Assembly: GCA_949372875.1 (NCBI GenBank)
Contig: CASIAW010000007.1
Location: 24,736-88,735 of the forward strand
Reading direction: 5' to 3'
Length of the DNA stretch: 64,000 nucleotides
Source of the DNA: Candidatus Poseidoniaceae archaeon
GTDB lineage: Archaea; Thermoplasmatota; Poseidoniia; Poseidoniales; Poseidoniaceae
The notes below the pieces were generated by a model. It made no database searches. It was given only the letters and a program-made list of their open reading frames with translations, and was not told the origin of the DNA. Made by a program: the position numbers and the translations under genes. Each line of letters opens with the position of its first letter. Position 1 is the first letter of the stretch. Below, piece by piece: positions 9,856 to 40,853 of this stretch.

Positions 9856-11985
9856 GTGCTATGCCTTTCTGCTCTGTGTATGCCCGAAGTGAAGAGCGAT
9901 TCTGACGGCGAAATTGACCATGAGACAAAGTCTCATAACAAGGTCACAAAAGAGTTGCTTGAAATTCGAAATCGTCGAACTGGTGATGTGAAGCAAAACT
10001 TCCTGGTCCAAAAAGAAAACTTTGTTTTGGCTGGTGGAATCGTCTACACGGTCTTGTACGTATTACTCATATTTGGAATGACATCGGGGACTTTTGGAAA
10101 TTCAACATCAATTGACCACTCCGCATCAAAAACATTCCTCGACATTGGAGGAGAATGTGAGGAGATTACAGATGAGCCATGGATCCTCATATTCCCGAAC
10201 GATGATGCTCGAAAGTTTTCGATGTATGGCTACAACCTCCCGTCCGGCTATGCACTTGGAGAATATACCATTGAGCATCATGATGATGCAGGTGATGTGT
10301 TAGAATCATGGAAGAACTCATCGACTAAATTCATCAACCCAGAGGGCGAAACCGATGCTGGAAGAATGTATTATTCAGCCCCATTTGGAGAACTTGAAGA
10401 GGGCCATTACAGCCTCAATTACACAATTTCGGTATACAACCAAACAAACCTTTCAGGTGCACAAACTGTTGAAGGTGGAGAAGAAATTTACAAAAAGGTT
10501 GAATTTGAACTGGACATCTCCAAGCAAACATTTGCTTTCTTACCGTTTGTCGACTCAGAGAAAAAGCATCAGGTTCGATTGACTGATACAGGCGCTCGCT
10601 CTTGCTGGGGCATTCAAGACCTCGGGAACTGGGGATATGTACTCATTGGAGCAGAATTAGGTGGCGGAAGAGAAACCGCCATGCTAGCTGGTGGCGCTGC
10701 GGGTATTCCTGCTTGGTGGATGGCTTTCTCATCGCTCTCGCTTTCTGCAATTACATTACTGATTATTTATCCATTGATGTATAAGGTATATCACCAAGAC
10801 AGTGATGACATCCTCTCAAGATTACACATTGCACGCCTGGTAGAGGACTCGATTAATAAAACGGCGAAACGATTGAACATTGAGATCGACTGGGAATTGT
10901 ATAAACTCGAACCGAGGGACTTATCAATTGACATAATGGTACCATACAAAAATACTGAATCCACACTTTCTGATAGTAAGGATGTGCGTGCGGAAGTGCT
11001 GCGTGAAGTGCTTGAAGAGTTCGCAATTTTCCATGTATTCAAACCTGTCCAACTCACCGTTCGTACCATCGGCATAAATCAAGGAATTGATTTTGAGTCA
11101 GGCGTCGGAATTGGAACATCGAATGAAGTCGAAGAAGATGAAGAGCAAAATTATTCAGACTTCTTTTCAGAACTACATACTCTTTCCCGTGTTGAGGAAG
11201 AAGTTCGGGAAAGTTTGGAATTATTCTTTGCTCGACGAAATAACTTGAAAATGGAAGCTGCTGTTGTAACGAGTGATGATCGAATCATCTTCGTTTCAGT
11301 GATTTATCGACCTACGCAACGCTTTGCTTTCTTTAGATTCAAGAAAACTCGTGACGAAGTTCAAACAGAACTTCACCACTTTATCTCAAAGCGAAATGCG
11401 GACTTGCTTGGTTCTCAAGAATTGATTGTAAAGGGACGTAACCAAGTCTCCACATTATCAGAACGGTCAGGCGCAGGACGTGTTGAGCGAGATCTAAAGA
11501 ACGATGAGCGAATTGTGGCTGTCGCAAAGCAGGATGGTTTTGGTGGTAAAATGTTGCAAACAAAACTCCTCGGAGATACGCTTTCAACCGTCGAATACAT
11601 GGCAAACGAAAAGCGAGAAATGATCAACAAGTGGGGATTCTGGGGACTGATTGTATTCGTTTGGATTCCGTTCATGGCATCCGGAGTATTAGTCGGTGCA
11701 ATGCTTGGCTTGCTTTCTCGAATGAATTTCATGCGTGTTTTAACCGCTACAGCCATCGGTGGAAGTATAGCTTCAATCACTTGGGCCTATACTGCTGAAG
11801 GTATCGTGAAGTTCATGCACCAATACAAACTTGAAGCGGTGATTCCATTGATTATTATCGTCTTTGTAGGCGCTGCATTCCTTCACATACGCTCGACCAA
11901 GATGCGCCGTCAAACTGAATTGTTTGAAGACACACTGCTTGACAACTTCCATGCAAACATCCAAGCCAAATACGGCTCTGAGTGA
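9856..11985 (+). CDS. Large polytopic membrane protein. It has an N-terminal extracytoplasmic domain and a C-terminal ~90-aa hydrophobic module resembling the COG2426 putative small multidrug export family.
   Basis: This is a long clean ORF with an N-terminal TM, a large N-glycosylation-rich domain, central TMs and the C-terminal segment KWGFWGLIVFVWIPFMASGVLVGAMLGLL...IGGSIASITWAY. No firm family call can be made. Confidence 0.6.
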   Translation: MLCLSALCMPEVKSDSDGEIDHETKSHNKVTKELLEIRNRRTGDVKQNFLVQKENFVLAGGIVYTVLYVLLIFGMTSGTFGNSTSIDHSASKTFLDIGGECEEITDEPWILIFPNDDARKFSMYGYNLPSGYALGEYTIEHHDDAGDVLESWKNSSTKFINPEGETDAGRMYYSAPFGELEEGHYSLNYTISVYNQTNLSGAQTVEGGEEIYKKVEFELDISKQTFAFLPFVDSEKKHQVRLTDTGARSCWGIQDLGNWGYVLIGAELGGGRETAMLAGGAAGIPAWWMAFSSLSLSAITLLIIYPLMYKVYHQDSDDILSRLHIARLVEDSINKTAKRLNIEIDWELYKLEPRDLSIDIMVPYKNTESTLSDSKDVRAEVLREVLEEFAIFHVFKPVQLTVRTIGINQGIDFESGVGIGTSNEVEEDEEQNYSDFFSELHTLSRVEEEVRESLELFFARRNNLKMEAAVVTSDDRIIFVSVIYRPTQRFAFFRFKKTRDEVQTELHHFISKRNADLLGSQELIVKGRNQVSTLSERSGAGRVERDLKNDERIVAVAKQDGFGGKMLQTKLLGDTLSTVEYMANEKREMINKWGFWGLIVFVWIPFMASGVLVGAMLGLLSRMNFMRVLTATAIGGSIASITWAYTAEGIVKFMHQYKLEAVIPLIIIVFVGAAFLHIRSTKMRRQTELFEDTLLDNFHANIQAKYGSE

Positions 11986-18867: not shown

Positions 18868-21800
18868 CTAACGGCTTCGACCCATATTGAAGATGGCTCT
18901 GGATTGAGGGGCGGTCCAACCAGTTTCTTGTAACTGCATCATGATTGAACGTTCTTCCTCTCCGTCATCAAGTGAACTTCGAACCCAATCCGCTGCGGAT
19001 TCACGGTCCTCTGTTTGCCAGTCTTCAAAGAGCGACAAATCAATTTTGAACGTCGCCTTTCGCACCTTAGCACCGCTCTCTTCTTCCTCTTTTGGTTCGG
19101 ACGGTGAATCAAAAGACGGGCGAGTTGAAACTCGGCCCCGAGGAGAAGGTTTGCTTCGTGGAGGGGTTGCTGCTTGAGGTGGGGGGGAATTAGGTCCTCG
19201 TCCTTGTGGGCCTTTAGGAGGGCTTCGGGACGGTCCAGGGCCGCCTTGAGGGCCCTTTGTCGGTCCTTTAGATGGGCCTCTGGAAGGTCCTGCTTGTGAC
19301 ACTGGAGCCCGCTTTGGCGCAGATTCTTGTGCACTTCGGCTGTTTCTAAAAGGAAGTGAATCGTCATCGTCGTCATCGTCCCAATCATCATCGTCATCGT
19401 CATCATAATCGTAATCATCACCTTGACGGCGAAGAAGAATCACTGCTACGACAAGAAGAACAACCATTCCTGCAACAACCGCAATGATGATTGTGGATGT
19501 CCCCAGCGCTGATGAGGAACCATCGTCGGAACCGGATGATCTTAACGGACAACCATCCGAATATCCATCTTCTCCCTTCGGTTCATTTTTACATTGGTCT
19601 AATTCATCGTTGACACCATCATTATCTGAATCAAGTTGACGAGGCGCACAACCATTTTCATCAACAGAAACTGATAAGGCTCGGTCTGTGCCCGGACACA
19701 AGTCTGGATAAGTCCCGTTTGGATTATCACCGTAGCCGTCGGCATCTTTATCGAACCACTGCGTAGCATTGCCAGCCAGATAAGGGAGTTCAGTAAAATC
19801 TGCATATCCATCCCCATCATCATAACATCCGTAAATATTTTCGCGTGTTGAAGTCCCAAACTCAGTTGGACAATAGTCGGAATAAATCCCATCTGGATTA
19901 TCTCCCCAGCCGTCGCCATCTAAGTCGGACCATTGCGAGCTGTTTGTAGGGAAGGCGTCACCTTGTTGGTCTTCTCGTAGACCACTGGTTTCGTTCAGCG
20001 TGTAGGTATATTCTCCAAGGTATCCATCGCCGTCTAAATCTTGTTCAAAGGCCGTTTCATCGGTACAACCATCTGCAAGAACTGGATATCCGGAAGGTGT
20101 TTCTGGACAAGCATCCACATCATCTTTCACACCATCACTATCCGAATCTCGTTCGGAAGGTGAGCATCCGTTCTCGTCCACTTCTGAACGTTCACTGTAA
20201 AGCGTCTCAGGACAGAGATCAGCAGGTCCACTCACGTTATCCAAATCGTCATCGGTCTCGAGTTGTGCATTACTACAGCCACTCGCATCAACGAGTACAC
20301 CAAACGGTGTCGACGGACAAATATCAAGGTCATTGGTAACACTGTCATCGTCGTCATCCAATTGGTTCTCTCCACATCCTACAGCATTGACGGAGAGACC
20401 TGCATCAGTATCCGGGCAGATATCTTCTGCATTCGGTACGAAATCTCCATCATCATCTGTATCATCAATAAAGCGGCATCCAATACCAGTGCCGCCTTCG
20501 GTAGGACTCGTTCCTTCAAGAACGCCGGCAATTGTTGGACATTCATCTGCTTGATAGCCCGCTGGGTTATCTCCAAAGCCATCGGAATCGAAATCCAGCC
20601 ATTGAGTTGGCTCGAGAGGGAAAGCGTCTTCGGAATTCATCCAACCGTCACCATCTGCATCAGGACATCCTGGGTAAGGACTCGTTGAATTGCCTGTCAC
20701 ACCAGGGCAGGCATCAAGCAGAAGTCCACCGCCATCATTTTCCGTGACGTCATCTGTAATGTCGTAAAACTCAGTCCATCGATCAGGATATCCGTCTGAA
20801 TCGTTGTCTTCTGCAGCCCCTATGTTATCTGGAAAACTATCAGGGTTCGTGGCGAATTGAGAACTGTTATCGCCGTAACCATCTCCGTCTGAATCAGCCC
20901 ACTGCGTGCTGTCAAATGGCCATGCATCTGCTCCATGAGATACATTCCATTCGAGGCCTCCGCTGTTAGAAGGATCTGATGAACCGTCGAGGTCGGAATC
21001 AAGGCAACCGTTTCGGTCTCGCCATGAAGCACCCCAGTCCCATTTGCAATTATCACCATCAACCCAATCAGAAGAGTTGTCTCCCCAACCATCACCGTCT
21101 TGGTCTTTGTATTGTGAAGGGTTGAATGGGAACAAGTCGCCATCTGGCTGGGACGAATCGTATTCAGTGAGGCAGCAATCAGGACCTGAATTATCCCCAT
21201 ATCCATCTCCATCGCTATCCAAAGCAAGTTTCCAATTGAAGATGAAAACATCACCAGAAAGATAGTTGAATTTGTTGTTAGACCAACCGTCTTGGTCGTA
21301 ATCATCGCAACCCATTCGGTCAATCCAAGAGTCCCCAGGGTCGTCATTACAAGCATCATCAACATCTGCATAACCATCATTGTCGTAATCGAGGCACCCG
21401 TAGGTGTAGAGCGAGGAAGGAGCATTGGTTGATGGGCAATAATCTGCTAACGGACCGAGTGTGTTATCTCCATATCCATCTCCGTCACTGTCCGACCATT
21501 GGTTTGCCAGCAGTGGTAGGTCATCGACCAAATCAAAGATGAGGTCTCTATCAGCATCAGGGTATAACCGCAAAACTTCAACGTCCCAAAGAACACTGTC
21601 TTGAATAGCAAGATGGAGGGTCTCGTTGGAATCTGTGTAGAAGCCTACTGAACCCGTAGCGGTTACATCACCGAAGGAGAGGCTGTTCCAGAAATATTCT
21701 GAAGAGGATTGACTCGAAAGAGTGGGTTGAGTGTTCAGACTGTTCCATGTAAGGAGGTTGTTTTGGCCGACGCTTGTCATCAAAACATAGGTGCCACCTT

Positions 21801-24800
21801 CAGAAGAAAGATCCCATGCTCCTTCGACCGTTGATGCAGGTTGTGAACCGAATGAATGCCAATCTAGTGAGCCGTTTCGAATGTAGATTACATCACTGTT
21901 TGAATCACCTCGGACAGCCATTGCAGGTTCAGAACCACCATTCAAATCGAGATTAAATGAGTTTATTGCGCCACTTGGCTGAGAGAGAAGAGTGGAGTTC
22001 CATGTTGAATTTTCTGCCCAAGTTGATTGATTCATTTGGCGTTCATAGAGATTCAAGGCTCCAGTAGAGGTCAGTGTAGCGACCATCATTGTTCCATCGT
22101 CTGTCATCGCGAGTTGGATGTTACTCGAGAGATCTGTTAGACTCGAAATAAAACTTGGTTCAACTGATGTTCCATCATACATCCATACGCTGAGGTTTTG
22201 GTTTTGGCCATCATTAGAAATCAAAGCGATGGCAAGATTGTCGTTAGGCATATACATTGCAGGGAAATGACTTGAGACGACCTCACCTTGAGAACCGATC
22301 ATGGCTGCGGACCATCCACCATCGTCGTGGGACATGATTAATTGGTCATCTGTTGAATCGCGGTAAAGAATGGTTGTTGCATCGCTTTGGTTGGTCAAAA
22401 CAACCAGTGGATCGACCAAATTGAGATTGGTAGCAACTTGAGTAGTTGCCCATCCCGAATCATCTTCAAGAGAGGCAAAGATTTGCTGCCCTCCGATACC
22501 TGAAGTCGCATGAGCGAGATGTTGGTGACCTTCGGAATCAAGGGCTGAGCCGAGTAAAGCCCCCATTGTTCCGGATGTAAGGATACTTTGTTCAACAGCG
22601 GTGTAACTTGATGTTGTTTGCATCTTCAGCGCCTGACCTCCTTCTGTAGAGAGAACAATCGGTCGGCCGGAACTTGTCCCAGCAAAAGCAAAGCTCGTTG
22701 AACTTGGAGATGAAGTTGAAAGCACTGTATCGGCCCATACTCCGGTAGCGGTACCGTCACTTACGTGCTCTAAGAAATGAAGAGAGTCCCAGTTCTGGAA
22801 TGAGAGGAGCATACTGGCTTCACCTCGGCTTGAGGTTGAAACATCTAAGAATTCTAACTCATCGGTATCAAATGCGAATGTAGATGATTCCCAATCACGT
22901 TCTGAGTAGAACTGGTAAACAACTCGGAATGAGGAATCAGGAATTGACTCCCGATAACTGAGACAAATCTCGTTGAGGCCATCACCATCAATATCACCAT
23001 GGGTTGCCATTGAAAGGCCTCGGTATTCTTGGGCATTGCCGGTGGCGAGTAATTCCGAATCACTGCTTAAGCCGGATGCTGAACCGAGAATAAGGTCAAC
23101 TTCACCACTGCGAGTTGCCCCTTGCTGCATAAGCAGGATATCATCATACCCATCTTCATTGACGTCGCCTGCTCCCATGAACATTCTCCCAAGCATTGCA
23201 TTGGCAGAGTCGCCTACTTTGGTCCAATTAGGGACAACAGAATGAATGCCGGAAGAAGATCCATGATACATCCATACCTTTCCGACTTGATAGCCTCCTG
23301 TGCCGTTATAGACTTCTGAAAACATCATGTCATCATATCCATCAGAGTTGATGTCCCCAATGAAATCGATTGTATGTCCGAACATCTTACCCTGGACATT
23401 CGAATCAATAGTTTGGTCTGCAATTCCGTTGAATCCAAAAGAGGCACCAAAGTAAATTTCAATCCTTGGAAAGCCACTGAATGAATCAAAACTCGCAGCA
23501 TTGGAAACAAGAAGATCATCAAACCCATCTCCGTTCAAATCCCCTGAACCACTCATTGAACGACCAAGCAGGGTTGATTCTTGCGTTTGAGTAATGTTAC
23601 GCACATGGTCCATAGACGAGGAATTTCCCTTGTAAATCGCTATCTTTCCATTGTGCACTATTTCGTTTGGAATGGTAGCAACAACTAGAGAATGATTGGC
23701 AGCAACTGCAGCGAGGTCTGCAAATCCATCACCGTTCATTCCAGCAATTGCTTCAAGTTTCCAGCCAAGAGCCTCACCTTGATTTCCAGTTACACTCCAC
23801 CACGAATTCAAACAATCAAGGCTTCCAGACGTGTTACCGAGGAAAATGTCAATTTTACCGTTATCCCCATTGGAGGAGTTCCACCCGGGTGAGCCTACAG
23901 CGATATCGACAATTCCATCTCCATTGAAATCTTCAACTGCTAAGCCCGATCCAAACCGTTGTCCTGCTTGCGTGCCATCACACAGGGTGATGGAACCATC
24001 ATGACCGAGTCCAAAGGCAGAACCGTAAGAAAGAGAGATGCGACCTGCCTCGAGGTGTTCAGTGGAATAACCGGGTTCAGAATAGATAAAGTCGTCAAAT
24101 CCGTCGCCATTGAAATCTGCCATGAAAGTGACACCTTCATCGAGGTTCTGTGAAGCGGTGGATTGGACTGGTGGCAACTGAATCTCAGAGAACTTAGGCA
24201 CCGGATTGATGCGACCTTCATCTTGTCCCGAAAGGCTTCGAAGTAATTGCACATTCGTAATGAGGTTCCCAGATCCATCGTCAACAACAGACGTCGTTGC
24301 AATTTGTTCAACAGCATTCGAATCAAGACCCATGCCAATATGTGTACCAAGGTTCGAGTCGCGAACGAGGACTCGACGGTCATATGTCGAGCCATCATAA
24401 CGAATCAAACGAACTTCTTCGCCTGCGGTGTAGAGTAAATGTGCAACACCATTATCATCCATTTCTAATTCAATAGAATGGCCGATTGGCCCTACATCAA
24501 GGAGGTCATGATACCACAAATTGCCACTGTAGTTTAATTGCCATAACGAACCATTGACATCCCGAAATACAGCATATTCCAGTTGATTCGGCAAGAGTAC
24601 CATCTCGATATCGGTTGGTCCAACATCATATCGGATGGTGATTTTTTGCCAAGAAAGTTCCGAAAAGACAGAGTTTGGATAAGCGATATGAGCTGACTTG
24701 AGATTGCTACCGTCTGCATAAAGCACATACTGACGGCCGTCTTCATTGACGGCAAGAGCGCAATCAACCAGAGAACTAGCGTTTGATGGGGTCACGGAGT

Positions 24801-25287
24801 CAACCAAATACAGCGACCAACCGGACTGAACCGACGAGTAGGATTGTTGCCCCCCGTCAAGGGAACCAACGTAGACATTCCCCTGTTCAGTTGTCCAGCA
24901 TGCATCAAAGCCTTCATCATGACTGAGTTGAATATCTGGGCGGCCCATTGTTTCATTTGGCAACATCACAAGCATTTCAGCCATCCAGAGATCTAATGCT
25001 GACTCTTCCCGAACCGTTGCATCATCTAATCCGTCGAAAGCAAGGTTGGTTCCTGCAAAATCATGGCTATATGAGTTATTGAGAGGGACATAATCGCTTG
25101 AAGAAGAAACAATGTTCTCATTAAACTCTAAGCCAGATTCTGTAGGATATTGCACCAAAGGAGAGAAGAGATGCACGACAAACAAAAAAGTGAGCAGCAA
25201 TGAAACTATTGGAAAAGGTCTGCTCGCCGCTGCCGCCATGCAACCTTGTCGGCCGGCTTCCTTGAAAACGCTTCTTGAAGATTGCAT
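18868..25287 (-). CDS. Giant (~2,139 aa) type-I membrane surface protein with integrin-alpha-like FG-GAP beta-propeller repeats, thrombospondin type-3 (TSP3) Ca-binding repeats, a TM helix and a poly-Asp plus Pro-rich cytoplasmic tail
   Basis: The predicted signal peptide is MAAAASRPFPIVSLLLTFLFVV, from ATG 25239, with alternative starts at 25287 and TTG 25425. At least six FG-GAP-like repeats (e.g. ...DFNGDGIVDIAVG...) form the propeller. Many DxDxDGxxDxxDxCP TSP3-like repeats follow. The TM is IIIAVVAGMVVLLVVAVILL, followed by RRQGDDYDYDDDDDDDWDDDDDDD and then a PxxP-rich tail. Confidence 0.85.
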   Translation of the reverse strand: MQSSRSVFKEAGRQGCMAAAASRPFPIVSLLLTFLFVVHLFSPLVQYPTESGLEFNENIVSSSSDYVPLNNSYSHDFAGTNLAFDGLDDATVREESALDLWMAEMLVMLPNETMGRPDIQLSHDEGFDACWTTEQGNVYVGSLDGGQQSYSSVQSGWSLYLVDSVTPSNASSLVDCALAVNEDGRQYVLYADGSNLKSAHIAYPNSVFSELSWQKITIRYDVGPTDIEMVLLPNQLEYAVFRDVNGSLWQLNYSGNLWYHDLLDVGPIGHSIELEMDDNGVAHLLYTAGEEVRLIRYDGSTYDRRVLVRDSNLGTHIGMGLDSNAVEQIATTSVVDDGSGNLITNVQLLRSLSGQDEGRINPVPKFSEIQLPPVQSTASQNLDEGVTFMADFNGDGFDDFIYSEPGYSTEHLEAGRISLSYGSAFGLGHDGSITLCDGTQAGQRFGSGLAVEDFNGDGIVDIAVGSPGWNSSNGDNGKIDIFLGNTSGSLDCLNSWWSVTGNQGEALGWKLEAIAGMNGDGFADLAAVAANHSLVVATIPNEIVHNGKIAIYKGNSSSMDHVRNITQTQESTLLGRSMSGSGDLNGDGFDDLLVSNAASFDSFSGFPRIEIYFGASFGFNGIADQTIDSNVQGKMFGHTIDFIGDINSDGYDDMMFSEVYNGTGGYQVGKVWMYHGSSSGIHSVVPNWTKVGDSANAMLGRMFMGAGDVNEDGYDDILLMQQGATRSGEVDLILGSASGLSSDSELLATGNAQEYRGLSMATHGDIDGDGLNEICLSYRESIPDSSFRVVYQFYSERDWESSTFAFDTDELEFLDVSTSSRGEASMLLSFQNWDSLHFLEHVSDGTATGVWADTVLSTSSPSSTSFAFAGTSSGRPIVLSTEGGQALKMQTTSSYTAVEQSILTSGTMGALLGSALDSEGHQHLAHATSGIGGQQIFASLEDDSGWATTQVATNLNLVDPLVVLTNQSDATTILYRDSTDDQLIMSHDDGGWSAAMIGSQGEVVSSHFPAMYMPNDNLAIALISNDGQNQNLSVWMYDGTSVEPSFISSLTDLSSNIQLAMTDDGTMMVATLTSTGALNLYERQMNQSTWAENSTWNSTLLSQPSGAINSFNLDLNGGSEPAMAVRGDSNSDVIYIRNGSLDWHSFGSQPASTVEGAWDLSSEGGTYVLMTSVGQNNLLTWNSLNTQPTLSSQSSSEYFWNSLSFGDVTATGSVGFYTDSNETLHLAIQDSVLWDVEVLRLYPDADRDLIFDLVDDLPLLANQWSDSDGDGYGDNTLGPLADYCPSTNAPSSLYTYGCLDYDNDGYADVDDACNDDPGDSWIDRMGCDDYDQDGWSNNKFNYLSGDVFIFNWKLALDSDGDGYGDNSGPDCCLTEYDSSQPDGDLFPFNPSQYKDQDGDGWGDNSSDWVDGDNCKWDWGASWRDRNGCLDSDLDGSSDPSNSGGLEWNVSHGADAWPFDSTQWADSDGDGYGDNSSQFATNPDSFPDNIGAAEDNDSDGYPDRWTEFYDITDDVTENDGGGLLLDACPGVTGNSTSPYPGCPDADGDGWMNSEDAFPLEPTQWLDFDSDGFGDNPAGYQADECPTIAGVLEGTSPTEGGTGIGCRFIDDTDDDGDFVPNAEDICPDTDAGLSVNAVGCGENQLDDDDDSVTNDLDICPSTPFGVLVDASGCSNAQLETDDDLDNVSGPADLCPETLYSERSEVDENGCSPSERDSDSDGVKDDVDACPETPSGYPVLADGCTDETAFEQDLDGDGYLGEYTYTLNETSGLREDQQGDAFPTNSSQWSDLDGDGWGDNPDGIYSDYCPTEFGTSTRENIYGCYDDGDGYADFTELPYLAGNATQWFDKDADGYGDNPNGTYPDLCPGTDRALSVSVDENGCAPRQLDSDNDGVNDELDQCKNEPKGEDGYSDGCPLRSSGSDDGSSSALGTSTIIIAVVAGMVVLLVVAVILLRRQGDDYDYDDDDDDDWDDDDDDDSLPFRNSRSAQESAPKRAPVSQAGPSRGPSKGPTKGPQGGPGPSRSPPKGPQGRGPNSPPPQAATPPRSKPSPRGRVSTRPSFDSPSEPKEEEESGAKVRKATFKIDLSLFEDWQTEDRESAADWVRSSLDDGEEERSIMMQLQETGWTAPQSRAIFNMGRSR

Positions 25288-25291
25288 CCAT

Positions 25292-25310
25292 TGACCCCCG
25301 TAGGGGGTCA
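25292..25310. promoter_or_regulatory. 19-bp perfect palindrome TGACCCCCGTAGGGGGTCA in the divergent region between the giant FG-GAP/TSP3 gene and the TPK gene
   Basis: The palindrome has 8-bp arms and a 3-nt centre. It lies about 50-70 nt upstream of the predicted signal-peptide start (25239) of the giant gene. A near-identical copy sits at 30807-30825. Confidence 0.5.
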
Positions 25311-25386
25311 TAACAACAAACTGCAAAACCATCGTTTTGAACCGCTCAATGGATGGGTTTGACAAGATGGACAACCTCGCCGGAGC

Positions 25387-26019
25387 ATGGCGGGAGAGCG
25401 ATATGTGATCATCGCCAATGGTCATTGGCCTAAAGAGGCAATATGGAGACCGTTAGTCGAAGATTCGGACCACGTCATGGCGTGTGATGGAGCGGCCGTT
25501 CAGTGTATTGAACACAAGGTTACAATGAATTCCATTATCGGCGACATGGATAGTCTACCGATTGAAATTGAATCGAAACTCAAACAAGAAGAAGAAATTC
25601 AATTTTTTGAACAAACGATTCAAGAAGAAAACGACTTGGTCAAAGCCATCCATTGGGCGATTAAACAAGGAGCCTCTCAGATCGAAGTATTCGGAATCGA
25701 AGGCGGAGATATGTCCCATCAATTTGCAGCTTTTTTAGCACTGTGTGAAGTCCCATTTCACACTCGATTAAACACATCGCAGGGCACCATTGAACTCATC
25801 CCGAAAAGTGGATATAGAAACTGCTCTATAGAAAAGAAGAGGCTCTTCTCCCTCTTCGCAATAGGGGCTGTTGAAGGCATCAAAACCTCGGGCGCAAAAT
25901 GGAATCTCAAAAACGAAGAGTTACGTCCTGGAACACGAGGCCTCCACAATCAAGTCGAGGGAGAATGTCTTGAGATCAGTATGGATTCTGGTCAACTACT
26001 TCTCTTCTTGAACCGTTGA
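25387..26019 (+). CDS. Thiamine pyrophosphokinase (TPK family)
   Basis: Motifs ACDGAA...IIGDMDSL, QEENDLVKAI and GIEGGDMSHQFAAF fit the TPK fold. The 210-aa length also fits. Confidence 0.7.
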   Translation: MAGERYVIIANGHWPKEAIWRPLVEDSDHVMACDGAAVQCIEHKVTMNSIIGDMDSLPIEIESKLKQEEEIQFFEQTIQEENDLVKAIHWAIKQGASQIEVFGIEGGDMSHQFAAFLALCEVPFHTRLNTSQGTIELIPKSGYRNCSIEKKRLFSLFAIGAVEGIKTSGAKWNLKNEELRPGTRGLHNQVEGECLEISMDSGQLLLFLNR

Positions 26020-26853
26020 TTCAGGGAGATACTTGCGAAGCATTTCTGAATAACTTCCTTTACCATCCCATTCTTGAGCGATTTTGTCAATACGTGCTTT
26101 TTCAAGCGTATCTTCTAGACCGCCCCAGTCTTCTATGAGGCCGAGTTTTAGTGCAGCCCGTGGAGTATAACCCGGGAGGAAATTACGCCACAAAAAGGGT
26201 ACGCGGCCCGGAGTGACTCGATTCACCATTCGAACAATCGAAGTATTGCAGGTGGTCAAAAACGAATGATACCATTCCGGTTTTTCAGCGAGTTGGTTTG
26301 CCTTATTTGCGAGGCGGCGAAGCATGTCTTTGTCCTTACCAGGTGGCGTGATGGCTCGAAACATGTAGTCCTTATTTCCTCGAGCATTTGTTCGTAATCC
26401 TGTGAGGTCGTGCTCAAAACCGACCAGGAGATACAGTTCAAAATTACGCCAAAGACCAGTCCATGGGTGATAGCGTTGTTTGACTCGACGACGTGCTTCA
26501 AAGGAGAAAGAGAGGCATGTGCCATCATTAAACTCAAAGGTCAGATAGGTATGTGCCATTCCGTGGATTGCATGGAAATGATCGACTATGAACCAGATGT
26601 CTTTCAGTTCTTCAACATCGACAACCACCTCATCCGCCCATGCTTCATCACGGTCCCGAGTTGTGCGCCAGAAGAAATCACGAACATTTCGAAACGTGAT
26701 GAGGTTACCATCAGTCGTGGTTGTGGTTAGAAACTCACAGTCTGAATTCCATTTTGCGTCATTTTGGGGAATGCGTGGACGAACTTTTACCACCCAAATG
26801 AGTATGCATATGCCTACCAATGAGAGAAGTGAAAGAAAAAAAATGTCCAACAA
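25996..26853 (-). CDS. Membrane-anchored hypothetical protein, possibly DUF4105 (Lnb N-terminal periplasmic domain)-like
   Basis: There is an N-terminal TM (FFLSLLSLVGICILIWVV). The motifs HGMAHTYLTFEF and WYHSFLTTCNTSI resemble DUF4105. The family call is low confidence. Confidence 0.5.
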   Translation of the reverse strand: MLDIFFLSLLSLVGICILIWVVKVRPRIPQNDAKWNSDCEFLTTTTTDGNLITFRNVRDFFWRTTRDRDEAWADEVVVDVEELKDIWFIVDHFHAIHGMAHTYLTFEFNDGTCLSFSFEARRRVKQRYHPWTGLWRNFELYLLVGFEHDLTGLRTNARGNKDYMFRAITPPGKDKDMLRRLANKANQLAEKPEWYHSFLTTCNTSIVRMVNRVTPGRVPFLWRNFLPGYTPRAALKLGLIEDWGGLEDTLEKARIDKIAQEWDGKGSYSEMLRKYLPESTVQEEK

Positions 26854-26865
26854 CGAAATTACCCC

Positions 26866-28197
26866 TCACCACTTGTGCCAAATACGAAGCTGATCATCCC
26901 ACCAATCAGTACCACCGTCTGGATGTTGACGCCAGAGAATACCTTCACCATCGGTCATCGTTGGAAGACCCTGAGCATCAGGTGAGCCGTCAGCAAGAAT
27001 CATTGGCATCGGACCAAGGTCCCGAAGAGAAGAGACTCCTGTTTCTTCCTTCACACGAACCAAGAGAATGAATACGACAACACAAACGATCAAGCCCAGA
27101 ATACCAATTGAGAACCAACCTACGGATTCAGTAGGAGTTTCATCTCCAAAAGAGCGGCTCGGAAGAGTTGCTGCTTCATCTTCAGAAAGGTTGAGCCCGG
27201 GGAGCCGAACAAGATTTATTCCGTGAACGGTTCGGATTTTTTCGTTATTGATTACTTCTAACGTAATCAAATGAACACCTGCGGGAAGGATGCTACAATC
27301 ATACGATGTGCTACGATTGCCGGGCAAGACAACTCCTTGAACGGTCCAGATTTTATCAAATGTAGAAAAGTCTACATCAATCATGTTTGGAATCATCGTG
27401 ATTTGGCAAGGATTGTCTGTAACGTTTTCATTCCCAACAACTGACATAGAGAATGCAGGCGCTGGCCGATTGTTTATCGAGAGATTGAGCCAATACTCTG
27501 CGGTTTGGCCTAAGTCATTTCGATAGGCTTCTTTGAGTAAATATTCGCCTGCAGGCCAGTGAGAACAATCTAAAATTGTCTGGTTATCAAGAACCGTGAA
27601 TGGCGCACCAGAGAATGTGCGCACGCCTGATGCGTCATATCGAGGGCCAGTTTCATCTGCAAAAATGCGGTTGATTGAACAGGGGTCTCCCGTTTCAATC
27701 CAGCTTGGCGCCTCTAAATCCAGCATAAGTTGTGGCGTTTTCAAAGCAGGCGTAAGCACATAGTTCGGCAATTGAAGCGTTGTGATTTTATTCCCGTCTT
27801 GGTTGATAAATTCAAGTCGGAGGGAATGTTCACCTTCTGACCATGCATCGTAAACGAGACTTACATTCGATTGGCCGGTAAAAGCCATGTATTGCGATTC
27901 AAGAACTTCTTTATCCTTGTGAAGTCCATACAATCGTAATTCAATTTCGGTTAAGTCGGAACTCGAATTGAGAATGACAACCACCCGAATCGCATCGGGT
28001 TCACCATCTTGGTTCATGTCCATGGTATCATTTCTCAAGGCAACGAGCGTCAGTCCTTCAGCAGAAAGAGCGTCTTCAACAGGAGTCGTTTCTGCTTGAA
28101 CTTCATCGACAAGACCGAGAGGGAGCATTATGCAACCGAGAAGAAGAGAGGTAAGAAGCAAAGGCAGAACTCGTGAGACTTCACTCATTGACTTCAC
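26866..28197 (-). CDS. Secreted C-terminally TM-anchored hypothetical surface protein (443 aa)
   Basis: The signal peptide is MKSMSEVSRVLPLLLTSLLLGCIMLPLG. An extracellular domain follows, then a TM (WFSIGILGLIVCVVVFILLV) and a short cytoplasmic tail. The start overlaps the end of the preceding TSP3 gene by 17 nt. Confidence 0.65.
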   Translation of the reverse strand: MKSMSEVSRVLPLLLTSLLLGCIMLPLGLVDEVQAETTPVEDALSAEGLTLVALRNDTMDMNQDGEPDAIRVVVILNSSSDLTEIELRLYGLHKDKEVLESQYMAFTGQSNVSLVYDAWSEGEHSLRLEFINQDGNKITTLQLPNYVLTPALKTPQLMLDLEAPSWIETGDPCSINRIFADETGPRYDASGVRTFSGAPFTVLDNQTILDCSHWPAGEYLLKEAYRNDLGQTAEYWLNLSINNRPAPAFSMSVVGNENVTDNPCQITMIPNMIDVDFSTFDKIWTVQGVVLPGNRSTSYDCSILPAGVHLITLEVINNEKIRTVHGINLVRLPGLNLSEDEAATLPSRSFGDETPTESVGWFSIGILGLIVCVVVFILLVRVKEETGVSSLRDLGPMPMILADGSPDAQGLPTMTDGEGILWRQHPDGGTDWWDDQLRIWHKW

Positions 28198-30760
28198 CTC
28201 CTTGTTCTGGAATTGGTTGAGCGGGTGGTGGCATCTCCATGCCTTCGGGAATTGGAAGAGGAGGTAAATCCTCCAATGGAATCATTGCTGGCGGCATTGC
28301 ATCCATCGTTAGTGCGTCTAAGTCTGCTGTTTCTTTGGAGTCAAACAATTGCTCTTCAAGGAGTTCATTGTCTCTCCCTCTACGAACAATGAGTGCTAAT
28401 GTTGCTCCGAAAATAAATCCAAAACCAATGACTAGATACGTCAACCAAGAGGCTGCTGGATCTTCACCTAAGATTGCAACAGCCGCTGAAAATTCACCAT
28501 AAGAATCCGACCAGCCATCGCCATTTGAATCGACACAGCCTTGGGTATCTCGCATGGAAATACCTGATATTTCTGGGCAGTCGTCTCGGAGTGCGCCTAA
28601 TGGAACATCACCGAAACCATCACCGTCGGAGTCTCGCCACTGAAGAGATTCAGTAGGGAATGAATCCGCAGCACCATACGGATGGGCTTGCCAACTATCG
28701 GTTGGATCTGACCAACCATCACCATCGGTATCACGACATCCCAAGCGGTCAAGCAGAGAAGTACCACGAACCTCAGGACAAGCATCGCCTTGATTGCCAT
28801 CTTCCGAATCTCCAAAACCATCGCCATCAGTATCGCGAGATTGGGTTGGCTCATGGATGAATGCATCACCTAAATCAGACCAGCCGTCGCCGTCTGTATC
28901 CGGGCAACCCCAACGGTCGCCGCCGGATGAAGGACCGACAGAAGTTCCTGCTTGACTAGGGCAAACATCTGCGGTCGTCCCAAGTGGGTTATCGCCACGT
29001 CCGTCACCATCAATATCGTGCCATTGGGTAACATCCATTGGCCAAGCATCGCCCTTTCCACCGGGACTTGCCAACCAAGAATTCGTTGGATCAGACCAGC
29101 CATCTTCATCGCTATCTGGGCATCCCCATCGGTCAAAAGTTGAGGCCCCTTCAGTCGTTCTACATCCGTCGCCTCGATAGGCAACACGAAGCGTTTGACC
29201 GTCGAAATATTCGAGGTTATCACCGTAACCATCGTCATCGGTATCATACCATTGACTTTCATCGTTCGGGAATGCATCAGCAAACCCATCGGGGTGAGCA
29301 ATCCAATCACTGCTCGGGTCTGAATAGCCATCTGAATCAACATCTCGACAACCAAGTCGGTCGAAACGAGAAATCCATTCGGACTCGACTTCTTCTGCTG
29401 AGGAAAAGACACAAACATCGCCTTCAAATCCGTCGAGGTTATCACCGTAACCATCACCATCGGTATCTCGGTATTGTGATTCTATGAATGGGAAATCATC
29501 GATTTGTGTCGCACCATAAGATTGGTTATCACCCCAACCATCTTCATCGGAGTCCGCCCACTGGGTTGGGTTGTCTGGGAAGTCATCGACTTGTAGAGCA
29601 CCTTCCGATTGGTTATCGCCCCAACCGTCAAAATCACGGTCTTGCCATTGGGAAGGTTCCAGAGGGAATGCATCAGAACCATTGGATTTCGTCCAATTCA
29701 AATCTCCGTCAGAAAATCCATCGCCATCTGTATCAGTGCAACCGTACCGGTCACCTGTTGAGGTCCCCGTAATGAATGGACAAGCGTCGGGTGTCGAGGC
29801 ATTGAACAACCACGAACCAATTCCCCAACCTGCACGTGAAAGGTTCCAATCTCCATCTTCCCAATTATCTCCAAAACCATCAGCATCGGTATCGTTCCAC
29901 TGTGACTGGTCAAGCGGAAAAGCGTCTCCAAACCCAACTGGGTGAGCATACCAAGCGGTAACACCGTCCAATGCACCGGGGTCTTCGTTTGAATAACCGT
30001 CACCATCTGAATCTAAACAACCGTATCGGTCTTGAACTGAATAGCCTCTTCGGAATGGACAATGATCTCCTTCAAAGCCATCGAGATTGTCTCCATAGCC
30101 ATCGTTATCGCTGTCAAGCCATTGGGAATTTTCGCTAACAAAAGCATCAGCCCCATTTTGAGGACCCCATCCTGAATCAGGATCAGACCAACCGTCTGAA
30201 TCTGAATCTGTGCAGCCCTTGCGGTCGTTTGTGGAGGTTCCTACCAAATTGTCACAGTCATCATCGTTATCGATAAATCCATCCTCATCAAAATCCCGGT
30301 TTGCTTTGTCAATTGAAGGCGTGAGGGTGTAATCAAATCCGTCGTTACACCACGAATCATCTGCCTTGACTTTGACATACACATAACTCGCAGTGTTCAC
30401 TGTTGTCGAGAGAACTTTGGAAGCCGCATTATCATCAGCATAGGTATCGACAATGACGCCACCTTGTGCATCGAGAAGAGAAAATCGACCGGCCCATCCA
30501 TCCCCAGGACACCACCATGCAGGTCCATTCATCGAACCGGAAAAAGAAACTTGAACGATATCGCCTTTCCGAGCTTCGACCTTCCAAAAGTCGGCTTTAT
30601 CTTGCCCTGCATCACAGTCAGGGTCGCACACATAACCGTTAGATGTAACGCCATCTGTGAGAGGATTTGCGCTTTGAATGTCGTCATCAGCCGAGACAGG
30701 CGGTAGCATTGAAATCATCATCGCGGCGAGGCAGATGGCCATCAACCGCTTCGCGAGCAT
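28181..30760 (-). CDS. Large (~859 aa) surface protein with an N-terminal beta-sandwich-like domain, ~15 tandem TSP3-like Ca-binding repeats and a TM anchor with a Pro-rich cytoplasmic tail
   Basis: The signal peptide is MLAKRLMAICLAAMMISMLPPVSA, from ATG 30760; the ORF track extends it to TTG 30838. Repeats of the form W.D.D.DG.GDN.D..P (e.g. WLDSDNDGYGDNLDGFEGDHCPF) recur throughout. The TM is LTYLVIGFGFIFGATLALIV. Confidence 0.85.
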   Translation of the reverse strand: MLAKRLMAICLAAMMISMLPPVSADDDIQSANPLTDGVTSNGYVCDPDCDAGQDKADFWKVEARKGDIVQVSFSGSMNGPAWWCPGDGWAGRFSLLDAQGGVIVDTYADDNAASKVLSTTVNTASYVYVKVKADDSWCNDGFDYTLTPSIDKANRDFDEDGFIDNDDDCDNLVGTSTNDRKGCTDSDSDGWSDPDSGWGPQNGADAFVSENSQWLDSDNDGYGDNLDGFEGDHCPFRRGYSVQDRYGCLDSDGDGYSNEDPGALDGVTAWYAHPVGFGDAFPLDQSQWNDTDADGFGDNWEDGDWNLSRAGWGIGSWLFNASTPDACPFITGTSTGDRYGCTDTDGDGFSDGDLNWTKSNGSDAFPLEPSQWQDRDFDGWGDNQSEGALQVDDFPDNPTQWADSDEDGWGDNQSYGATQIDDFPFIESQYRDTDGDGYGDNLDGFEGDVCVFSSAEEVESEWISRFDRLGCRDVDSDGYSDPSSDWIAHPDGFADAFPNDESQWYDTDDDGYGDNLEYFDGQTLRVAYRGDGCRTTEGASTFDRWGCPDSDEDGWSDPTNSWLASPGGKGDAWPMDVTQWHDIDGDGRGDNPLGTTADVCPSQAGTSVGPSSGGDRWGCPDTDGDGWSDLGDAFIHEPTQSRDTDGDGFGDSEDGNQGDACPEVRGTSLLDRLGCRDTDGDGWSDPTDSWQAHPYGAADSFPTESLQWRDSDGDGFGDVPLGALRDDCPEISGISMRDTQGCVDSNGDGWSDSYGEFSAAVAILGEDPAASWLTYLVIGFGFIFGATLALIVRRGRDNELLEEQLFDSKETADLDALTMDAMPPAMIPLEDLPPLPIPEGMEMPPPAQPIPEQGGEVNE

Positions 30761-30806
30761 GCTTGTCCAATAGGTGGTGTGCCTATGAACACCGCGCCTT
30801 CTCGGC

Positions 30807-30825
30807 TGACACCCGTAGGGTGTCA
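30807..30825. promoter_or_regulatory. 19-bp perfect palindrome TGACACCCGTAGGGTGTCA between the BNR gene stop and the TSP3-repeat gene start
   Basis: It is the same motif as at 25292-25310. It lies 10 nt after the BNR gene stop codon and about 50-65 nt upstream of ATG 30760. Confidence 0.5.
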
Positions 30826-35622: not shown

Positions 35623-35958
35623 TCATACGTTGTCCCAGTCAAGGTCAATACCAGCCACAGGCTGAGTGTCAGCCGCTGAGTCTTCAAGAACTGGCTTTGC
35701 TGAATCAAGTATTTCTTCTTCTGCAAGAACCTCTTCTGCACCTTCAACTGCACCACCTTCAAGTTCGTCTCGCTTTTTGTCATCGTTCGAAGAAGGTTTG
35801 AAACCGCCGAATGAATCCCAAGTGTCAATCATTGCAAGTTCAGCCTTCTTTTGACGACGTAATGCAATAACGGCAATAACGACAAGAATACCGACGAAAC
35901 CTGAAGTGGCTGCAACGAACATGGCAACTCTGCTGTCGGATTCCGCCTGCTTCAACAT
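35623..35958 (-). other. Detached C-terminal TM anchor plus acidic cytoplasmic tail of the upstream 1,554-aa adhesin, lying in a different reading frame. This implies a frameshift near 35940-35990.
   Basis: The segment encodes ...AESDSRVAMFVAATSGFVGILVVIAVIALRRQKKAE plus an acidic tail. This is the same TM-RR-acidic architecture seen at the C-termini of the other giant surface proteins. The big ORF instead ends in the nonsensical Cys/Arg-rich tail CHVRCSHFRFRRYSCRYCRYC. Confidence 0.55.
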
Positions 35959-38900
35959 AGAGTGTGATACTGAGAATATCGATCATCGGGTCAGCGCCTG
36001 TCCCGTCGGTTGCAATGACTTTCAAATTCGGACGACCTGCAGCATCAGGGTTCATCTCAACGCTGCCTTCCCAGTAGCCATCACCGTCTTCATCTGTGAG
36101 ATTAAACGCCCAGTTCTGAACGTTAAAAACAACCGTTGCTCGAACACTTTGAGTCGTCCCATCAGGGTCACTCATCATCACTCGAACAGAAAAAGTGTTT
36201 TTCTGTTGTGCAAGAAGTGTATCTGGCATAACGGTGAGATTGGAAAGTTTTGGAAGACTCGATTGAACTGTAATGTTGGTATGAACTTCGTCACTTGCTC
36301 CACGGCTGTCTTCGACATAGAGTGAGAGGTGATGCTGACCCGGAGGGAGTTGAATCGAATCAGTACTCATGGTTGAGACGATTTCATAGTCTCCAGTAAC
36401 CAACCACCGGCGCCATTCACGTGTTTCCATATCACCATCAGCATCGGAAGACTGCTCTTCTAAGACCACAAATTCACCAGGTGCTACCGAGAAGAGATTT
36501 GACGGTTGAAGTAAGAGTGCAACGGGGTCTGATTGTCCAATTGTAAGACTCACGAAGGAGATTTGTTCATCTCCGGTGTCATCTGTAAGAGTGATTTTGA
36601 TGGTGTGCTCTCCAGCAGGAAGAGGTGAAGAGTGAACTTGAGAGGTCGAAACATCACTCAACAATGGCTCAGTGAGCAAATCACTTCGAATGGTCATTGT
36701 AAACGAATCGCCGTCATAATCCACCGATTGGCGAGCGTCCCATTGAATCGGGTAACTGGAAGAATAGGCATCGCCGTCGGCAGGGGAATCGAGAGTTAAT
36801 TGCGGCGCCGAAGTCAGAACTTCAACGGTTCGTGAAACGTTGACTGGCTGATGTATGCCATCATCGAGACTGAGCGTTATCGTGTGCGTTCCAGCACTCA
36901 AACGCCCCTCGAAAATGAGCCAGTCTTCACCCTCTGGAGTAAGGCGTCCGTCCAAATCGCTGTTCCAAACCACAACCAAATATTCCGAGCCGCTGAAAGG
37001 TTCTGAATCAGCACAATGCCAGATTCCATCCATTGGGAAGGTAGAGCATGCAGAATCGTAATCACCCGAAGAATTAGCAGAGAACCATATCAGTTCCGAG
37101 GATACGTACGTTTGTGTGGAAAGTGGAGTTTCAATATTTGACTGTGGAAGCGAATTCTCAACGTCCACTAGCAGCGACGCAACCTTTGTGTCGTTGATAT
37201 GTTCTGGTCGGTTATCGACTACCCTCATTTCTATAGAATGAACGCCTCTGGAAAGGTGTCCAGTCCACGTTTTGCCGGCCTCGGTATTATTCCAGGAGAG
37301 TTGACCGTCAAGGCTTGACCAAAATTCAACCTCAAGAATATCCCCCTCAGGGTCGATAGTTGCCGTTCCATCGAGTGTGACTTCATCTTCACTAGCATTC
37401 CCAAGACGAGTTAATGTGAACACGGGGTCTGGAACTTCATTATACAGTTCTACTGGAATTGTGTACGTGGATGGAGGGTTAATGCCATCAGAGGCGTAAA
37501 TCACTACATCAAAAGTAGAAGGAACTGTTTCAGCCATTGAAAGGTTCATCCAAATTTCTGTGGGACAGTCGGTGATTGAACTTTCTGAGGTAACCGATTG
37601 ATACGAGCGGTCAATCCAACACGACAGCGTATCTCCTTCTGGATCAAAAGTTCCAGTGAGGTTGAAGAGAACATGTTGGGTTCGGGGAATCACAAGTTCT
37701 GACCATGGCGTCAATTCAGGAGTAACCTCGAAGACAATTGTAGGCGCTTGATTGACAAGTTCGATTGTTCGGCTTTCAGAAACACAGTGTCCGTAATCGT
37801 CACATATTTCCAAAGAGATGATATGAATTCCATCTGAGAGAGTGCAATTCCCTGCATGGTTCCCATTTACAGTGAATGGATACCCTCTCGTCACATTGTA
37901 TTGATTTTCAAACCCTTGACCTTGCCCAGTGCAAGATGCCAAAATATCGCCATCGAGGCTACTTGTCCATGCGAAAGTAAGTTCATCGTCATCGAGATCC
38001 CAAGAATCTGAGGCATTGAATTCGACAGAGCCTTGCGATGAGAACACCGAAGAATCAGAGGGAGAAGTCCACATGAGGAAAGGTGGTTGATTGTCGAGAG
38101 GGAGAACGCAATTGACAAATCGGTCTTGATCAAGCGTTACAGTCGTAGAATTGGATACACTGTCGTATCCACAGGAAACGGTCACTGTTGTGAAACTCGA
38201 AGCGCCCGTATTGGTCCATCGTTGACCTATGAAGTTTGGAAGAGAGCGATAACCGAACTCATTGCTCGAGTCTTGAACCGTGCTTTCAAATTGGGAAAAA
38301 GCGGCCTCAACATTTGCCCTTGGAACACCGTTACTGTTGTTATTTATGACCCAGACATTGATGTCATAAGCAACATCTACGGTTGCACCGGATGCGATGG
38401 TTGGATACGATTGGTTCAAATCGATGTTCACAGGTTGATGTAAATGCAAATTCGAATTCGAATCGAGTTGGAGAAGGGTTGAAGTCAGCCCAGAATCTGT
38501 AAATCCGGACCAATTCACCTGACTGTTAACAAATTGTATTGTTCCTGTACAATCCGTGGCAATTGCATTCCCATTTCCGGACAGGTCAAGGTGGTTTGAA
38601 ATCTGAAGACAGCCAGTACCACTGAAAGAGCTGTTACTAAGTTCTGAAGGGTAATTGTTGTTGTTTTGGCCATCCCATTCAATTCCTGAATGGTTACCAT
38701 ACATCATCAATCCATCAATTGAAGCGGCGGCTTGGTTGATGAGTAGTGCAGGTGCTCCCGCCCCACTTCCTCGCTCGGTGTGGATTTCAAGGTCTTCGAT
38801 GTGGATGACGCCTCCTTGTTGACCGAGATTTAAGCCAGAGTTGTCTGCCGCAAGCGGTGCGAAATCTTCTCCATTTTCAGCGAGATAAATATCGCTTAAC

Positions 38901-40504: not shown

Positions 40505-40619
40505 GTCTTCCGCTGTATGAAAGAGCATTTGAAGGGTTCTATGAAATGTGAGAAACGGTATCATTGAGCCCAAGAGTTTCCTTCGATAGCAATAAGACCG
40601 GTCCGCAATTCGGCTGTTT

Positions 40620-40853
40620 ATGCCCGAAGCGTTTGTGTTGTTCAAAACCCAACCTGCTCACGAGCGAGAAGTCTACCTTTCATTGATGGAACATTCAGCC
40701 GTTGCGGAAGTTCATGCACTTTACGGTGAATTTGATTTAGTCGTTCGTTTGTCTGTGGAAAACTCCCAAAACCTCACCAAAATGTTGATGACCGATTTTC
40801 GCCAAATCCAAGGAGTTAAAGATACTCAAACACTGATTGCAGTGGAATACTGA
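40620..40853 (+). CDS. Stand-alone Lrp/AsnC ligand-binding (RAM) domain protein, 77 aa
   Basis: The protein shows the betaalphabetabetaalphabeta RAM pattern: VLFKTQPAHEREVYLSLMEHSAVAEVHALYGEFDLVVRLSVENSQNLTKMLMTDFRQIQGVKDTQTLIAVEY. It has no HTH. Confidence 0.7.
   Translation: MPEAFVLFKTQPAHEREVYLSLMEHSAVAEVHALYGEFDLVVRLSVENSQNLTKMLMTDFRQIQGVKDTQTLIAVEY

Follow-up and report, generated by a model that had tools for sequence, protein, structure and literature searches.

The 64-kb stretch of DNA analysed here (64,000 nucleotides; hereafter the window) stems from an archaeon of the Poseidoniales (Marine Group II) and carries two GC-rich inverted repeats, each with a 3-nt spacer between arms of 8 bp and each located upstream of a minus-strand gene encoding a large membrane protein. 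The first of these repeats (site 1) lies between the divergent genes of a giant integrin-like surface protein and a thiamine diphosphokinase (TPK). The palindrome is probably a duplex binding site, i.e. an operator or upstream activating site (UAS), for a putative dimeric and sequence-specific transcription regulator of the Poseidoniales. This reading is the best supported one because the arm sequence, and not just its pairing, is invariant, the spacer is free, the spacing to the core promoter is fixed and half-sites are shared within a genome.

Site 1 (25292-25310, no strand assigned; TGACCCCCGTAGGGGGTCA, i.e. TGACCCCC-GTA-GGGGGTCA) is centred at about -62 from the ATG of the giant gene, and site 2 (30807-30825, no strand assigned; TGACACCCGTAGGGTGTCA, i.e. 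TGACACCC-GTA-GGGTGTCA) at about -56 from the ATG of a gene for an 859-aa membrane protein, with 52 and 46 nt, respectively, between palindrome edge and ATG. Site 1 is located inside a 147-bp divergent intergenic region and site 2 inside a 74-bp gap behind a co-directional 577-aa gene. The two sequences differ at positions 5 and 15, where C:G in one is replaced symmetrically by A:T in the other, and the centres of their half-sites are 11 bp apart, approximately one helical turn. The preliminary description had called both of them perfect 19-bp palindromes, which is correct for the 8-bp arms and not for the whole 19 bp, since the 3-nt spacer, which reads GTA on the plus strand and TAC on that of the genes, is non-palindromic. 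Both inverted repeats are present where that description had placed them, and they are the sole matches to TGACMCCC-N3-GGGKGTCA in the window even when two mismatches are allowed, compared with 0.04 matches expected from the shuffled window (0 of 100 shuffles reached two). A separate hairpin scan of the window also returned sites 1 and 2 as the only GC-rich 8-bp/3-nt hairpins of such type.

Both sites stand in a defined position relative to a core promoter. Within the curated set of window genes, used here as an automated profile over all loci was too noisy, 12 of 44 have a pentamer TT[CG]A[AT] (TTSAW) whose first base is at -27 to -29 relative to the ATG (1.5 expected; Poisson p ~5e-8), the target genes of sites 1 and 2 both being among these 12. 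The best reading of this pentamer is a generic TATA-like box that serves leaderless mRNAs in this genome. The box of the giant gene (TTTTCAAGG, 25260-25268, minus strand; TTCAA begins at -27) has its mirror image on the TPK side (TTTTGAACC, 25335-25343, plus strand), and the midpoint of the two divergent boxes (25301.5) coincides with the centre of the site-1 palindrome (25301) in the window. The 859-aa gene has its box (TTCATAGG, 30782-30789; TTCAT at -29) within a core promoter, GGTGTTCATAGGCACACC (30776-30793, minus strand), which 15 lineages share almost unchanged and which is better conserved than the site-2 palindrome. On the giant side, 74 of 88 distinct site-1 orthologous sequences have 20-25 nt between the palindrome edge and the box downstream of it, whereas the spacing to the TPK box is less regular. 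Both palindrome centres fall upstream of the expected position of the TFB-recognition element (BRE) and TATA box. Of the similar elements that had been described downstream of the two palindromes, both are present; however, TTCAWAGG is the generic core-promoter box and not special to the pair, and GACAAG, found before both ATGs, is not conserved in orthologous promoters.

Several further features of these promoters were observed. Other genes with a TT[CG]A[AT] box include those at 982, 7500-8693 (minus strand), 8790, 16034, 33999, 45338, 47003-48067 (minus strand), 48121 and 50155, and the box pattern of the window suggests an unusual TATA-like consensus (YTTSAAR) together with mostly leaderless mRNAs. 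A GGTGT/ACACC inverted repeat flanks the TATA-like box inside GGTGTTCATAGGCACACC and could be a second regulatory site overlapping this box. The site-1 intergenic region shows mirror symmetry outside the palindrome as well: the start-codon regions at 25230-25241 and 25385-25396 form an inverted repeat (CTGCCGCCATGC / GCATGGCGGGAG), and a 10-nt inverted-repeat pair (CATCCATTGA / TCAATGGATG) is found at 25285-25294 and 25346-25355, as if the divergent promoters were mirror copies of each other.

An exact scan for TGACNCCCGTAGGGNGTCA over 185,579 species genomes (one per species) gave at least 119 loci. Among the matches listed, 72 came from Poseidoniales or unclassified marine Euryarchaeota metagenome-assembled genomes (MAGs), and the free positions of the pattern were complementary in 73 of 73 archaeal instances (67 C/G and 6 A/T). 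Every archaeal C/G instance in this set lies between a TPK gene of ~210 aa and a divergent giant gene of ~2,100 aa, and every A/T instance lies upstream of an orthologue of the 859-aa gene, with one or two exact copies per Poseidoniales assembly, including contigs of 0.4-2 Mb. The non-archaeal loci listed belonged mostly to a repeat with many copies in Bordetella or were isolated single hits, with free positions that are mostly AA or TT. No exact-pattern site was found inside a gene in the Poseidoniales DNA examined. A looser core search (AC.CCC-N3-GGG.GT and beyond) over ~0.79 Mb of Poseidoniales DNA returned essentially only the two orthologous sites, the sole extra match being inside a gene (L137, 4510-4528; L001 to L225 are labels of the loci and lineages compared), and a broader regulon was rejected on this basis.

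The arms of site 1 are without mismatch in more than 100 Poseidoniales sequences, while the TPK proteins encoded beside these sites are only 30-55% identical to that of the window; the arms are therefore under much stronger constraint than the adjacent protein. Since the exact scan finds perfect arms only, a palindrome-independent sample of metagenome loci was also fetched via the TPK protein. Here 28 of about 36 Poseidoniales-type loci (TPK divergent from the giant gene) showed 0 mismatches in the 16 arm positions, and one locus (L141) carried the same arms around a 2-nt spacer. Canonical arms were likewise present in four of four further TPK lineages, each at most 55% identical to any sampled, with the spacers AAA, TAA and ATA. 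Across orthologues the site-1 spacer varies freely (GTA, TAC, ATA, TAA, AAA, TTC and TTT). The suggestion that the motif is an operator thus withstood both the genome-wide scan, which found it neither frequent at random positions nor inside genes in Poseidoniales DNA, and the comparison of orthologous promoters, where it is conserved upstream far beyond the neighbouring protein.

In rare clades different arms, again perfect and in an 8-3-8 layout, stand equally far from the giant-gene box, which brings the number of arm sequences to four. These variants of site 1 are CGGCCCCC-ATA-GGGGGCCG (L160), TGCCCCTC-TAC-GAGGGGCA (L222 and L225) and CGCCGCTC-TAY/ATA-GAGCGGCG (L145-147, L220, L224 and L221). 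The CGCCGCTC arms are conserved within their clade, as L221 and L147 share them although their TPK proteins are only 51% identical. Sites 1 and 2 moreover change in parallel: site 2 of L220 reads CGCCTAC-ATA-GTAGGCG and has its outer CGCC/GGCG in common with site 1 of the same lineage, the analogue in the window being the outer TGAC/GTCA common to its own two sites. This parallel change, seen in the two lineages that the comparison comprises (the window and L220), points to a single sequence-specific trans-acting factor with shifted specificity.

A second palindrome was seen in L145-L147, L220, L221 and L224, some 14 nt upstream of the TPK box and ~20 nt from the CGCCGCTC palindrome (GAGGCC-GTA-GGCCTC, e.g. 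at 7940-7954 in L220; AGAGGCC-TCC-GGCCTCT in L221), and each of the divergent promoters in this clade thus has an inverted repeat of its own.

Site 2 is intact, with TGACACCC arms, in the window genus and L099. Three lineages (L071, L077 and L030) carry nAACACCC-N3-GGGTGTTn, a symmetric G:C to A:T change at positions 2 and 18, and L001 has GACACCC arms; the site is partial or decayed in L020, L033, L015, L084, L013 and L046, the last two having kept outer TGGCA/TGTCA arms and lost the inner stem, and it is mostly absent from more distant groups. In an alignment of 15 site-2 sequences, 85% of the cells pair and three pairs show double-sided changes. For two covariation measures 1-5 of 500 shuffles reached the observed values, which gives modest support as the sequences are related. 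No GC-rich palindrome of the site-2 type was found upstream of the 859-aa-gene orthologue of L225 (an 827-aa gene). An AT-richer 8-4-8 palindrome, ATCCAAGT-GTAT-ACTTGGAT, lies there between box and ATG (~11291-11330).

The element therefore combines dyad symmetry, a constrained promoter position, orthologous conservation and half-sites that are shared and change together, the features expected of an operator or UAS, and from these we infer that it is bound by a protein and that this protein is dimeric. Each 8-bp arm would serve as one half-site of the dimer and the 3-bp spacer would not be read. At site 1 the dimer would occupy the middle between the two leaderless core promoters that diverge there, with ~20-25 bp to the TATA-like box of the giant gene on its downstream side. 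From this place it would influence the recruitment of TBP and TFB, and it could act on the giant gene and possibly also on the divergent TPK gene. In the window genus and some of its relatives the second copy, altered by the symmetric C:G to A:T change, would put the operon of the 859-aa membrane protein under the same control. Activation is the likelier direction of regulation at site 1, because the palindrome lies upstream of BRE/TATA with no overlap.

The regulator itself was sought with Pfam among the window open reading frames (ORFs) of at least 150 aa (44 proteins) and by clustering the neighbours in 103 loci. The window had been described as containing many winged helix-turn-helix (wHTH) regulators; only two winged-helix genes were found among these 44 proteins, 55185-55646 (HxlR-like) and 55643-56371 (tandem wHTH), both 25-30 kb away and with nothing that links them to site 1 or 2. 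The conserved neighbours in the 103 loci comprised only the giant gene, TPK, an Lnb_N-domain protein, a ~443-aa protein and the 859-aa protein. The cytoplasmic tail of the giant protein was considered as a membrane-tethered reader of the palindrome; the idea found no support, as this tail is unchanged in clades with different palindromes and no homologue of it was detected.

A number of observations weigh against the operator reading. No adjacent or syntenic DNA-binding gene occurs among the conserved neighbours, and a factor whose gene is not close by would not usually have a regulon as small as one or two promoters. Across a whole order 16 out of 16 arm positions are invariant, a stronger conservation than typical operators show. 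The element has been lost in L149, and L141 has the shortened spacer mentioned above. Site 2 of L220 and L052 abuts the promoter box, compared with 17 nt upstream of it in the window, so the direction of regulation cannot be generalised. Finally, all changes are symmetric (positions 5/15, positions 2/18 and the variant clades), which would equally fit selection for a hairpin or template-switch correction of quasi-palindromes; symmetric changes also arise, however, when a homodimer and its operator co-evolve.

What the preliminary description had proposed, an operator that co-regulates a repertoire of adhesins, thus holds in part. A selected, promoter-associated cis-element is supported, and a dimeric binding protein appears probable. 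The repertoire is not supported: with one or two sites per genome the motif does not mark it, other large surface-protein genes of the window (e.g. 35840-40645) lack the motif, in many genera site 2 is decayed or missing, and site 1 is shared with the divergent TPK gene.

The same symmetric changes speak for the main rival reading, one that we regard as unlikely, though deserving of attention, in which the GC-rich 8-bp arms are selected for their ability to form a hairpin or cruciform in DNA or RNA. As DNA, this would be a supercoiling-sensitive promoter element or the target of a structure-specific protein; as RNA, it would be the 5' hairpin of short transcripts, inward or antisense, starting from the quasi-symmetric boxes ~24 nt from each palindrome edge. 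Since the TTSAA boxes are near-palindromic, their geometry would also allow transcription to start inwards at the palindrome edge. Single strands of the palindromes do fold stably (-7 to -10 kcal/mol as DNA), and every arm change preserves perfect complementarity (site 1 versus site 2, L071/L077/L030, L160, L222 and L147), with four arm sequences at the same position in an identical 8-3-8 geometry around a spacer that is free, occurs in both orientations (GTA and TAC) and may shrink to 2 nt, as in L141. Selection on pairing only would, however, allow swaps between G:C, A:T and C:G, whereas the arms of the main clade are invariant in all of the sequences counted above, down to a TPK identity of 30%. 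Independent hairpins are also not expected to share lineage-specific outer arms (TGAC or CGCC) between sites 1 and 2, or to keep the outer TGGCA/TGTCA arms without an inner stem, as L013 and L046 do at site 2. For the extrusion of a cruciform, 8-bp arms are short. The mRNAs of both target genes appear to be leaderless, which places the element outside them, and there is no Rfam match.

A combination of structure and sequence is slightly less probable again. Here a short GC-rich hairpin or cruciform, or the 5' hairpin of an inward transcript, would be recognised by a protein with specificity for structure as well as sequence and would set the expression of the giant protein, the dyad being kept by compensatory evolution throughout an archaeal order. 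If true, this would be a principle of promoter architecture not described for Archaea.

It is very unlikely that the palindrome is a landmark at the level of the chromosome, that is a single-copy site for a segregation, recombination (Xer/dif-like) or replication protein that is intergenic by chance. The low copy number (one or rarely two exact copies per genome among the matches listed, contigs of 0.4-2 Mb included) and an extreme conservation comparable to that of parS- or dif-type sites would suit such a role, yet the spacing to the core promoter box is conserved and the second copy, 5.5 kb away, occupies a comparable promoter-relative position at another surface-protein gene. Xer sites have an 11-6-11 layout (two ~11-bp arms around a 6-8-bp centre, one per chromosome), which the 8-3-8 layout does not fit, and no Orc1/Cdc6, Xer or partition genes were present among the window proteins scanned.

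A terminator or insulator hairpin between transcription units is more improbable still and was rejected. The stem is GC-rich and site 2 starts 10 nt past the stop codon that ends the 577-aa gene; nevertheless, neither hairpin is followed by a T-run, a terminator scan flagged neither site, and the genes flanking site 1 both point away from it, so that no transcript ends there. Intrinsic termination in Archaea relies, besides, on oligo-T tracts and not on hairpins. Chance similarity, or a selfish dispersed repeat of the repetitive extragenic palindrome (REP) or miniature inverted-repeat transposable element (MITE) type without function, can be practically dismissed: the pattern is multi-copy in Bordetella (free positions AA or TT, non-complementary) and occurs in a few viral contigs, whereas the shuffle expectation in the window is 0.04 matches and the Poseidoniales copies, one or two per genome, are always at orthologous positions, unlike a REP or MITE, with invariant arms and diverging flanks.

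A known structured RNA, including a thiamine pyrophosphate riboswitch, was likewise rejected, as Rfam gave only a tRNA on the window at the gathering threshold and nothing at E <=1 within 25150-25450. Carriage of the site by viruses of these archaea was rejected too: there were 13 hits in viral contigs, about the expected number by a rough estimate, all in unrelated contexts. In some viral or giant-virus contigs (L202-L204, L209, L211, L212; L200, L206, L208) the sequence TGACCCCC-N3-GGGGGTCA is centred in a larger inverted repeat, gtaaattcgcgag...ctcgcgaatttac, or lies beside extra TGACCCCC half-sites. The pattern is also matched by an unrelated REP-like intergenic repeat in Bordetella genomosp. 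7 and B. petrii (L003, L011, L018, L116 etc.), with up to five copies in 8 kb.

The gene most tightly coupled to site 1 encodes a type-I membrane protein of 2,123 aa (18868-25239, minus strand) made up of a signal/transmembrane (TM) start, FG-GAP repeats, TSP3-like Ca-binding repeats, a C-terminal TM helix and a cytoplasmic module of ~70 aa. Its ORF spans 18868-25425 (minus strand), with ATG 25239 as the most plausible start (MAAAASRPFP...); this start is preferred over ATG 25287, from which a protein of 2,139 aa had been described, because the MA..SR.FP start is conserved in orthologues and a promoter box lies at -27. The 859-aa membrane protein (28181-30760, minus strand), downstream of site 2, has DxDxDG repeats and a C-terminal TM helix. 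The earlier labelling of both as TSP3-repeat proteins finds weak support: in the giant protein FG-GAP is above the Pfam threshold (E = 2e-12), TSP_3 reaches 17 bits versus a cut-off of 25 bits and NCBIfam throspo3_MtsC scores far under its cut-off, while no family of Pfam or NCBIfam is matched by the 859-aa protein, in whose sequence the DxDxDG-type repeats are nevertheless visible.

All giant-protein orthologues end in the ~70-aa cytoplasmic module (18871-19095, minus strand, in the window), which is far more conserved than the N-terminus (consensus KVRKA..DLSIFEDWQ.EDRESA.DWV...ER..LMQLQETGW.A.QSRAI). An AlphaFold model of this module shows a small helical bundle (predicted local distance difference test score, pLDDT, 78), and it had no match in Pfam or among PDB sequences and no significant Foldseek match.

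The divergent TPK gene (25387-26019, plus strand) encodes a protein with Pfam TPK_catalytic and TPK_B1_binding domains that scores 110 bits with TIGR01378 (cut-off 76 bits), and its synteny with the giant gene is kept in ~100 loci. The minus-strand cluster opens with the 859-aa gene, followed by 26866-28197 and 25996-26853, and the block conserved across the Poseidoniales consists of the giant FG-GAP gene, the divergent TPK gene, the gene of the Lnb_N-domain protein (25996-26853), that of the ~443-aa protein (26866-28197; no family match) and that of the 859-aa Ca-binding-repeat protein, the orthologues of the last lying ~5.5 kb from site 1 in many genera. The block thus has a thiamine-salvage gene locked to surface-protein genes. 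Elsewhere in the window, 32601-55054 is a cluster rich in glycosyltransferases (GT4 and GT2), GDP-mannose 4,6-dehydratase, methyltransferases and PPK2, which adjoins several very large surface proteins, e.g. a 1,601-aa beta-helix/PKD protein (35840-40645), and has the appearance of an island for surface-glycoprotein biogenesis.

The Poseidoniales, which are uncultured, count among the most abundant surface-ocean archaea. The 19-bp element marks the promoter of one giant integrin-like surface protein that is kept in every sampled lineage, in fixed synteny with a thiamine-salvage gene. Literature searches returned nothing on the motif, on Poseidoniales promoter elements or on gene regulation in the Poseidoniales, and while an element of this kind is conventional, the instance, the depth of its conservation and the series of variants are new. 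The 19-mer could be used as bait for the regulator, and the arms TGACCCCC, CGGCCCCC, TGCCCCTC and CGCCGCTC provide a natural co-variation series that can be matched to changes in the recognition helices of candidate regulators. The TTSAW box at -28, together with the apparently leaderless mRNAs, could aid the calling of start codons in Poseidoniales MAGs.

In being a short, GC-rich, hairpin-forming intergenic sequence the element resembles REP palindromes such as the Bordetella repeat, which in contrast is multi-copy with non-complementary variable positions, whereas the Poseidoniales element has one or two positionally orthologous copies. A closer parallel in distribution is offered by the CIRCE/HrcA and NrdR-box operators, ultra-conserved inverted repeats of Bacteria with very small regulons: these too are perfect inverted repeats of very wide phylogenetic range, present in one to few copies per genome at the same orthologous genes. 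They belong, however, to another domain of life with another promoter logic, and their cognate regulators are known where that of the Poseidoniales is putative; CIRCE, furthermore, is a repressor site that has 9-bp arms around a spacer of 9 bp and lies across or downstream of the promoter. Within the Archaea, UASs with dimeric regulators include the Ptr2 sites upstream of rb2 and fdxA in Methanocaldococcus jannaschii, the GvpE UAS of Halobacterium and the EarA site upstream of the fla promoter in Methanococcus. The Poseidoniales element has an unrelated, GC-rich arm sequence that is almost invariant across an order, its factor is putative, its site 1 is centred between divergent promoters, and we infer activation from position only. 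Like the Ptr2, GvpE and EarA sites, it is a short symmetric element just upstream of BRE/TATA, in a position compatible with the recruitment of TBP and TFB, and as in the case of EarA its putative target is a cell-surface structure.

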